Assembly: GCF_003334765.1 (NCBI RefSeq)
Contig: NZ_QOWT01000002.1
DNA: 64,000 nucleotides
Direction: 5' to 3' (one strand)
Source of the DNA: Escherichia coli
GTDB taxonomy: Bacteria; Pseudomonadota; Gammaproteobacteria; Enterobacterales; Enterobacteriaceae
The notes under the pieces were generated by a model. The model searched no databases, was not told the origin of the DNA, and worked only from the letters and a program-made list of their open reading frames with translations. The number at the start of each line of letters is the position of its first letter. Position 1 is the stretch's first letter. Positions 1,939 through 2,258 of the stretch are shown here, piece after piece. The translations under genes and the position numbers were made by a program.

Positions 1939-2258
1939 AACTCCCCCACTTCACCGAAAGTAGTGTCCTCATTGCTTACCTCCTGAGTTTTGCAAACAGC
2001 CTGTTGGCAGCTTGCCCTTTCAAATCAATAAGCGGTATCCACAGACAAACCTGAAGGGAAAGGCATATTTTCAGGCGTTCTGCTCGTCCTTCTCAAAGAG
2101 TTTACTTTTCTGCATTTCCAGGATACTCCCCCCCCCTGGCTATTGTGCGCTCATACACTCAAATTAAAGATAGGTTCTAAATAAATGAGCGTTTTTTGAT
2201 AGTCTATTTCATTAGGTAATATATATTTGTAACAAATCAATCAAAATGGAATAAAATC

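Follow-up and report, generated by a model that had tools for sequence, protein, structure and literature searches.

A length-variable poly-C tract upstream of yfdF in Escherichia coli, a probable neutral mononucleotide repeat

A run of nine cytosines (C9 on the plus strand, G9 on the minus strand) occupies positions 2128..2136 of the 64-kb Escherichia coli K-12 window, the whole stretch of DNA analysed here, between fadL (547-1893) and yfdF (2259-3317, plus strand). We consider it quite likely that this tract is a neutral, hypermutable mononucleotide repeat in the non-coding spacer that makes up the 5' part of a horizontally acquired islet, its neutrality being read from sequence comparison. 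The number of C differs across strains, and the variation is confined to long uninterrupted runs. This bears out the proneness to slipped-strand mispairing that the first-pass annotation had attributed to the run; the modulation of promoter spacing that it had also proposed finds no support in the position of the tract.

The C tract and its islet

Exactly nine consecutive C are read between ...aggatact and tggctatt... (CCCCCCCCC), and 122 nt separate them from the yfdF ATG, in agreement with the position and the distance of about 120 bp originally reported. The description of the surroundings as AT-rich holds for the 122 nt downstream (27% G+C) but not for the 194 nt upstream (48.5% G+C), and the tract sits on the step between the two. 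The upstream segment (1943..2136, plus strand) is a C-rich, G-poor spacer (60 C vs 34 G) that ends in the tract. The RefSeq annotation places no gene over this spacer and nothing over the tract, and a scan of the fadL-yfdF intergenic region against Rfam matched no family. The sole open reading frame that crosses the tract (2012-2167, 51 codons) was dismissed as non-coding, since natural alleles differ in length by 1, 2 and 3 nt and those one base longer or shorter would shift its frame.

The C9 tract is the longest homopolymer of the window, the next longest G/C run being 6. Under a first-order Markov model, 0.14 C/G runs of at least 9 are expected per 64 kb, or about 10 per genome, and the observed number of C8 matches (at least two) was reached in 16 of 100 dinucleotide shuffles. 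The tract is uncommon, and from composition alone it is not statistically remarkable; its behaviour across strains is what sets it apart. We found no earlier account of a fadL-yfdF poly-C tract in the literature searched. Dcm recognizes CCAGG and CCTGG, and the tract is bracketed by two such sites. The first (CCAGG, 2118..2122) lies 5 nt upstream, and the second (CCTGG, 2135..2139) takes in the final two C of the run together with the TGG that follows. One metagenome allele, CCCCCCCT, carries a C-to-T change at the methylated C, as deamination would give.

The fadL-yfdF intergenic region spans 365 nt and is 100% identical to that of MG1655. Comparison with strains ABU 83972 and MSHS 133 delimits an islet of about 1.55 kb (1903..3457) inserted between fadL and mlaA, which consists of the whole 365-nt spacer, yfdF and the spacer that leads to the old terminator. 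The tract lies about 225 nt inside the left end of this islet. Phylogroup B2 strains such as ABU 83972 are missing the islet, and in them fadL and mlaA are convergent, 61 nt apart, with a single bidirectional terminator common to both (2757-2817 of the B2 locus). This B2 terminator, aaaaaaggtgagttttgcgactcacctttttt, corresponds to window positions 3458-3489. The islet is horizontally acquired, and the comparison agrees with the insertion next to fadL put forward by Silue et al. 2022 (PMC9241512). The region is present in about 4,280 of 5,426 complete genomes. The gene annotated at the yfdF position encodes 343, 415 and 399 aa among O157:H7 SS17, EC6868 and NRZ106056, and 352 aa in K-12; with flanks diverged by 10-12%, yfdF/icaT varies far more than the genes next to it.

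In K-12 the islet parts fadL from the old terminator, and what follows the gene is a hairpin of the islet itself that is almost without a U tract. This 13-bp perfect hairpin (1911..1939, plus strand) lies just 3' of the fadL stop codon and is terminator-like, with a short T run; an intrinsic-terminator scan did not call it. Such a setting invites an explanation in terms of Rho, in which the C-rich 194 nt would serve as a Rho-utilization region that stops fadL read-through before the silenced yfdF, with the poly-C aiding Rho binding and its exact length being immaterial. Poly(C) is the classic Rho ligand, and both the excess of C over G in the spacer and the want of a proper U tract in the fadL-proximal hairpin fit this explanation. 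The argument is a purely compositional one, however, and strains with interrupted alleles show similar C-richness, which indicates that the homopolymer itself is not required. We consider it unlikely that Rho accounts for the tract.

Insertion sequences are also found in the spacer. In strain FORC_042 an IS1A copy (748-1445 of its locus) lies about 90 nt upstream of the tract (window position ~2037) and not within it. In NMBU-W12E19 (4040-6250 of its locus), the first three C of the tract border directly on a truncated IS421, an IS4-family element (ACTCCC/ATAAGCGC...), with IS5 following; the strain has lost yfdF by deletion. The spacer tolerates insertions, which is consistent with the absence of an essential element. 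The idea that the tract is a general hot spot for insertion sequences was discarded, as the IS421 case, in one genome, is the only one seen besides ISEc20 (see below).

The yfdF promoter and the spacing proposal

The yfdF gene is the icaT gene of Shigella, which encodes a type III secretion substrate, is silenced by H-NS and is activated by MxiE/IpgC via a MxiE box. Table S2 of Hall et al. 2022 gives the functional yfdF box as TGAGCGTTTTTTGATAG, with its start 73 nt ahead of the start codon; the box is functional in Shigella flexneri and was validated by mutation. An identical 17-mer is present in the window (2186..2202, plus strand), likewise 73 nt before the ATG, where it overlaps the -35 region (TTGATA, 2196-2201). 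The yfdF reporter of Hall et al. 2022 spanned the entire intergenic region, its primer corresponding to window positions 1894-1913. Bongrand et al. 2012 cloned fragments covering -57..+11 that start 8 bp 5' of the MxiE box, which puts the box at -49..-33; fragments of this minimal size behave as regulated promoters. With the box so placed, yfdF transcription would start near 2235, the predicted -10 hexamer would be TATATT (2222..2227, plus strand), and the tract would lie at about -107..-99, 49 bp upstream of the MxiE box. The MxiE-box module (GTATCGTTTTTTTAnAG at -49..-33 together with the -10) occupies 2186-2227 here, and the C tract is outside it.

A promoter and terminator scan combined with reading by eye found no sigma-70-like promoter that spans the tract on either strand. 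The best candidate seen by eye, a minus-strand pair CGCACA-N18-TATCCT with the G9 in its spacer, was rejected with matches at only 7 of 12 positions. Also rejected was a role for the tract as a conserved part of MxiE-box promoters, given that the upstream regions of yccE and yjgL share only the box and are without poly-C. The YfdF and YccE proteins are unrelated. Modulation of promoter spacing is unsupported because the tract is upstream of the box and not between promoter elements, falls outside -57..+11 and is absent from the yccE and yjgL promoters. Two observations had been named at the outset as speaking against the proposal, namely a tract length that is invariant across strains and a location outside any promoter element. 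The first is contradicted by the strains, and the second is what we find for every mapped promoter element.

A contingency locus need not act on the spacing of core elements, and slippage might instead switch or tune yfdF/icaT transcription by altering the distance of the MxiE box/-35 from an upstream element, or from the edge of an H-NS filament, or the helical phasing between them. The tract is uninterrupted, exceeds about 8 units and demonstrably varies in length among close relatives; it also lies upstream of a tightly regulated, H-NS-silenced gene and exactly on the boundary between G+C- and A+T-rich DNA, where one would expect an H-NS-bound region to stop. Its location is nonetheless not that of a contingency promoter, being neither between -35 and -10, nor between the activator site and the core promoter, nor inside a coding frame. 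Moreover, -57..+11 suffices for minimal promoters of the MxiE class, two other MxiE-box promoters (yccE and yjgL) do without such a tract, no promoter-like hexamer pair crosses it, and stable interrupted alleles accompany the same promoter in many lineages. We regard a contingency locus as very unlikely. That length changes tune or switch the silencing and activation of yfdF/icaT specifically through helical phase, or through the end-point of an H-NS filament relative to the MxiE box, strikes us as highly improbable; were it true, the tract would be a homopolymer contingency switch placed at about -100, a location without known precedent in E. coli or Shigella.

For a neutral repeat, the reading we prefer, the position of the tract has a simple consequence. 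Length changes leave the spacing of the known promoter elements unaltered because the tract is about 100 bp upstream of the start, and they would most probably be without effect on the expression of yfdF or fadL. As a regulatory element the tract is probably unimportant.

Tract length across strains and the origin of the run

Comparison of tract length over E. coli genomes, as the first-pass annotation had advised, revealed that it is not invariant. When eight genomes are aligned, no part of the 365-nt intergenic region other than the tract varies by indels; C9 (K-12), C8, CA-C8, CA-C9, CAA-C5 (O157:H7), CAA-C6 and CAAACCACCC are represented. Over about 4,280 complete genomes and 107 metagenome contigs, the alleles comprise pure runs from C7 to C13, CA-C6 to CA-C9, CAA-C5 to CAA-C8, and interrupted forms such as CAAACCACCC. 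Exact alleles were counted by searching K-12-type 44-nt flanks in 5,426 complete genomes, with correction for about 91 half-length perfect matches that stem from genomes split by an insertion sequence. C9 predominates among these pure runs (~824 complete genomes), followed by C8 (~254) and C10 (~60), and the longest runs are rare (C11 in 5, C12 in 8 and C13 in 1). A pattern scan of metagenome contigs, mostly short-read assemblies, yielded 107 genuine E. coli copies. Pure runs of C7, C8, C9 and C10 account for 1, 10, 23 and 6 of these; CA-C6, CA-C7, CA-C8 and CA-C9 for 2, 2, 16 and 2; and CAA-C5, CAA-C6, CAA-C7 and CAA-C8 for 5, 8, 1 and 1. CAAACCACCC was found in 19 copies and CAACCTCCC in 9, and a few copies are singletons.

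Homopolymers are open to miscalling, and part of the apparent variation may be error in long-read assemblies. Records of MG1655 disagree (C9 vs C8 in NZ_CP025268.1), as do those of C600 (C9 vs C10 in NZ_CM132660.1), and the PacBio-era assemblies of NEB K-12 derivatives (NZ_CP053603-5) have C8; these disagreements among K-12 laboratory assemblies may reflect either divergence of stocks by slippage or long-read miscalling. Independent records of the same lineage agree elsewhere, with C8 in all four E. coli W-derived records and C10 in all three of ATCC 8739, and at least part of the length variation is therefore real. That the tract is actually stable and its variation mostly an artefact of long-read or low-coverage assembly is suggested by the discordant laboratory strains, but the concordant lineages, the substitutions that distinguish alleles in addition to length, and the same allelic spectrum in the mostly short-read metagenome assemblies make this a most improbable explanation.

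The relation between run length and variability was determined in contigs that extend 230 nt to the left and 600 nt to the right of the tract, using pairs that are identical over these 830 nt. When both runs have at least 8 C, the tract differs in 42 of 109 pairs (39%). No difference was seen in the 15 pairs with runs of 5-7, nor in the 4 pairs with runs of 4 or fewer. The same pattern appears within flank haplotypes. The groups that carry CAACCCCCC, CAACCTCCC or CAAACCACCC show one allele each. Both C9 and C8 occur in the main K-12-like group, and another group is mixed (CA-C8, CA-C9, C10, C9 and CA-C6). Variability that arises only above a threshold of run length, and faster than substitution in 830 flanking bases, is the signature of replication slippage, which we infer to be the mechanism.

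Pure runs are found on flank haplotypes that are 0-2% from K-12, and the interrupted forms on flanks that are 10-12% away. On one flank type, CAACCTCCC, CAACCCCCC and C9 all occur and are all 9 nt long. These data suggest an interrupted precursor that substitutions converted into the run, with slippage setting in only afterwards. The repeated substitution towards C is slightly more directional than pure neutrality predicts. A scan of genome contigs for an outgroup that would give the ancestral state found none (one spurious match), and we infer the polarity of the change. The GTDB representative of E. coli is presumably a B2 strain without the islet. The proposed history would begin with an interrupted C/A-rich motif, a decamer in forms such as CAAACCACCC and CAACCTCCC, that is still kept in divergent yfdF lineages. 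In the ancestry of K-12 and its relatives, base substitutions would have removed the interruptions and left a continuous C run. Once the run had reached about 8 C, slippage would have added and removed C one at a time, at a pace above that of point mutation in the kilobase around it, with C7-C13 in present-day strains as the outcome.

The features expected of a neutral repeat are those observed. The run is in a non-coding location over which no annotation, Rfam, promoter or terminator call falls; its variability rises with uninterrupted length, and the interrupted alleles are stable. Long G/C homopolymers are very scarce in E. coli, and this one can serve as a fast-evolving marker for telling apart close relatives within phylogroups A and B1. 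The tract is also a predictable source of single-base differences, false or real, between assemblies of laboratory strains, and a clean natural example of an interrupted motif turning into a slippage-prone run.

ISEc20 at poly-C sites and comparison with known systems

In 85 complete genomes the tract itself contains ISEc20, an IS110-type element, as ACT-CCCC/ISEc20/CCCCCC-TGG. In E. coli W60 (2552-4000 of the W60 locus) the junctions read ACT-CCCC, then G TTAC...GGGGCA for the element, then CCCCCC-TGG. Eight independent ISEc20 sites, on plasmids of E. coli, Shigella and Klebsiella and on chromosomes, all have the element in one orientation. A run of C3-C6 lies on its left at all eight; on its right are C6 (five sites), C18 (one), CCCCTCC (one) and no C run (one). 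The C18 is on Klebsiella pneumoniae plasmid CP086672.1, most other sites having 6, and the homopolymer that flanks ISEc20 seems to expand after or before insertion. Empty sites on the flank type of the yfdF insertion carry pure runs of C7-C13 and never C4, as well as CAACCCCCC, CAACCTCCC and one CA-C8; because the pure runs are never C4, the C that flank ISEc20 are target-derived. The empty copy of a second ISEc20 site is ACA-C7. This second poly-C locus (ACA-C7, at 690-712 of the stretch compared, or C5/ISEc20/C6) lies upstream of a small helix-turn-helix gene, within an island element that many E. coli genomes carry in multiple copies (up to 7 per genome), and it has CA-interrupted and pure-run forms like the yfdF tract.

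The 227-nt 5' non-coding region of ISEc20 folds better than shuffled sequences (z = -3.05) and forms two stem-loops. The first places CUUCCCCCAG opposite CCGGGGGGUG (C5/G6 segments), a guide layout that we read by analogy only. In the second, CUAAUAGGGGGCAGG nearly repeats the right end TTAATAGGGGCA, and CUGUAACG is complementary to the left end CGTTAC. A scan of ISEc20 against Rfam found nothing, and no description of its target was found in the literature searched. Target choice by IS110-family elements is known to be RNA-guided, as in the bridge RNA of IS621. ISEc20 resembles IS621 and ISEc21 in its IS110-type layout, in a long 5' non-coding region with two stem-loops that match its own ends and flanks, and in a single orientation at one kind of sequence; its apparent target differs in being a C homopolymer and not a REP, attC or unique linear motif. 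RNA-guided target choice has been described for IS110/IS1111 elements through the seekRNA of ISEc11/ISEc21 (Siddiquee et al. 2024, PMC11187229). By analogy with these elements, we think it reasonably likely that ISEc20 is natively guided by RNA to poly-C runs. Insertion of ISEc20 is a consequence of the tract being a long C run and not a function of the tract. If the guidance is truly towards poly-C, rare hypermutable homopolymers would be landing pads for an RNA-guided recombinase, and this side finding, if confirmed, would matter more.

Two well-known systems show what a regulatory homopolymer looks like. In Bordetella pertussis, phase variation of fim2 and fim3 depends on promoter poly-C that alters the spacing between the BvgA site and the -10. 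As at yfdF, the poly-C is upstream of an activator-dependent gene and slippage changes its length; the fim tract, however, lies between the activator site and the -10 and sets their geometry, whereas the yfdF tract is upstream of its activator box. The poly-G and poly-C promoter-spacer tracts of Neisseria porA and opc, like other homopolymer contingency loci, lie between -35 and -10 or in open reading frames. They share with the yfdF tract a hypermutability through slipped-strand mispairing but not its location, which is neither between such hexamers nor inside a reading frame.

The closest likeness is to another group. Polymorphic mononucleotide repeats have reportedly been described in non-coding E. 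coli DNA, and the yfdF tract matches these loci in having a run of at least 8 in an intergenic position, single-unit differences between strains, no known function and use as a fast typing marker. It differs from them in that its allelic series also displays the build-up of the run from an interrupted precursor. To our knowledge the fadL-yfdF tract had not been listed among the polymorphic mononucleotide loci, and it is an ordinary, previously unlisted member of this well-known class.
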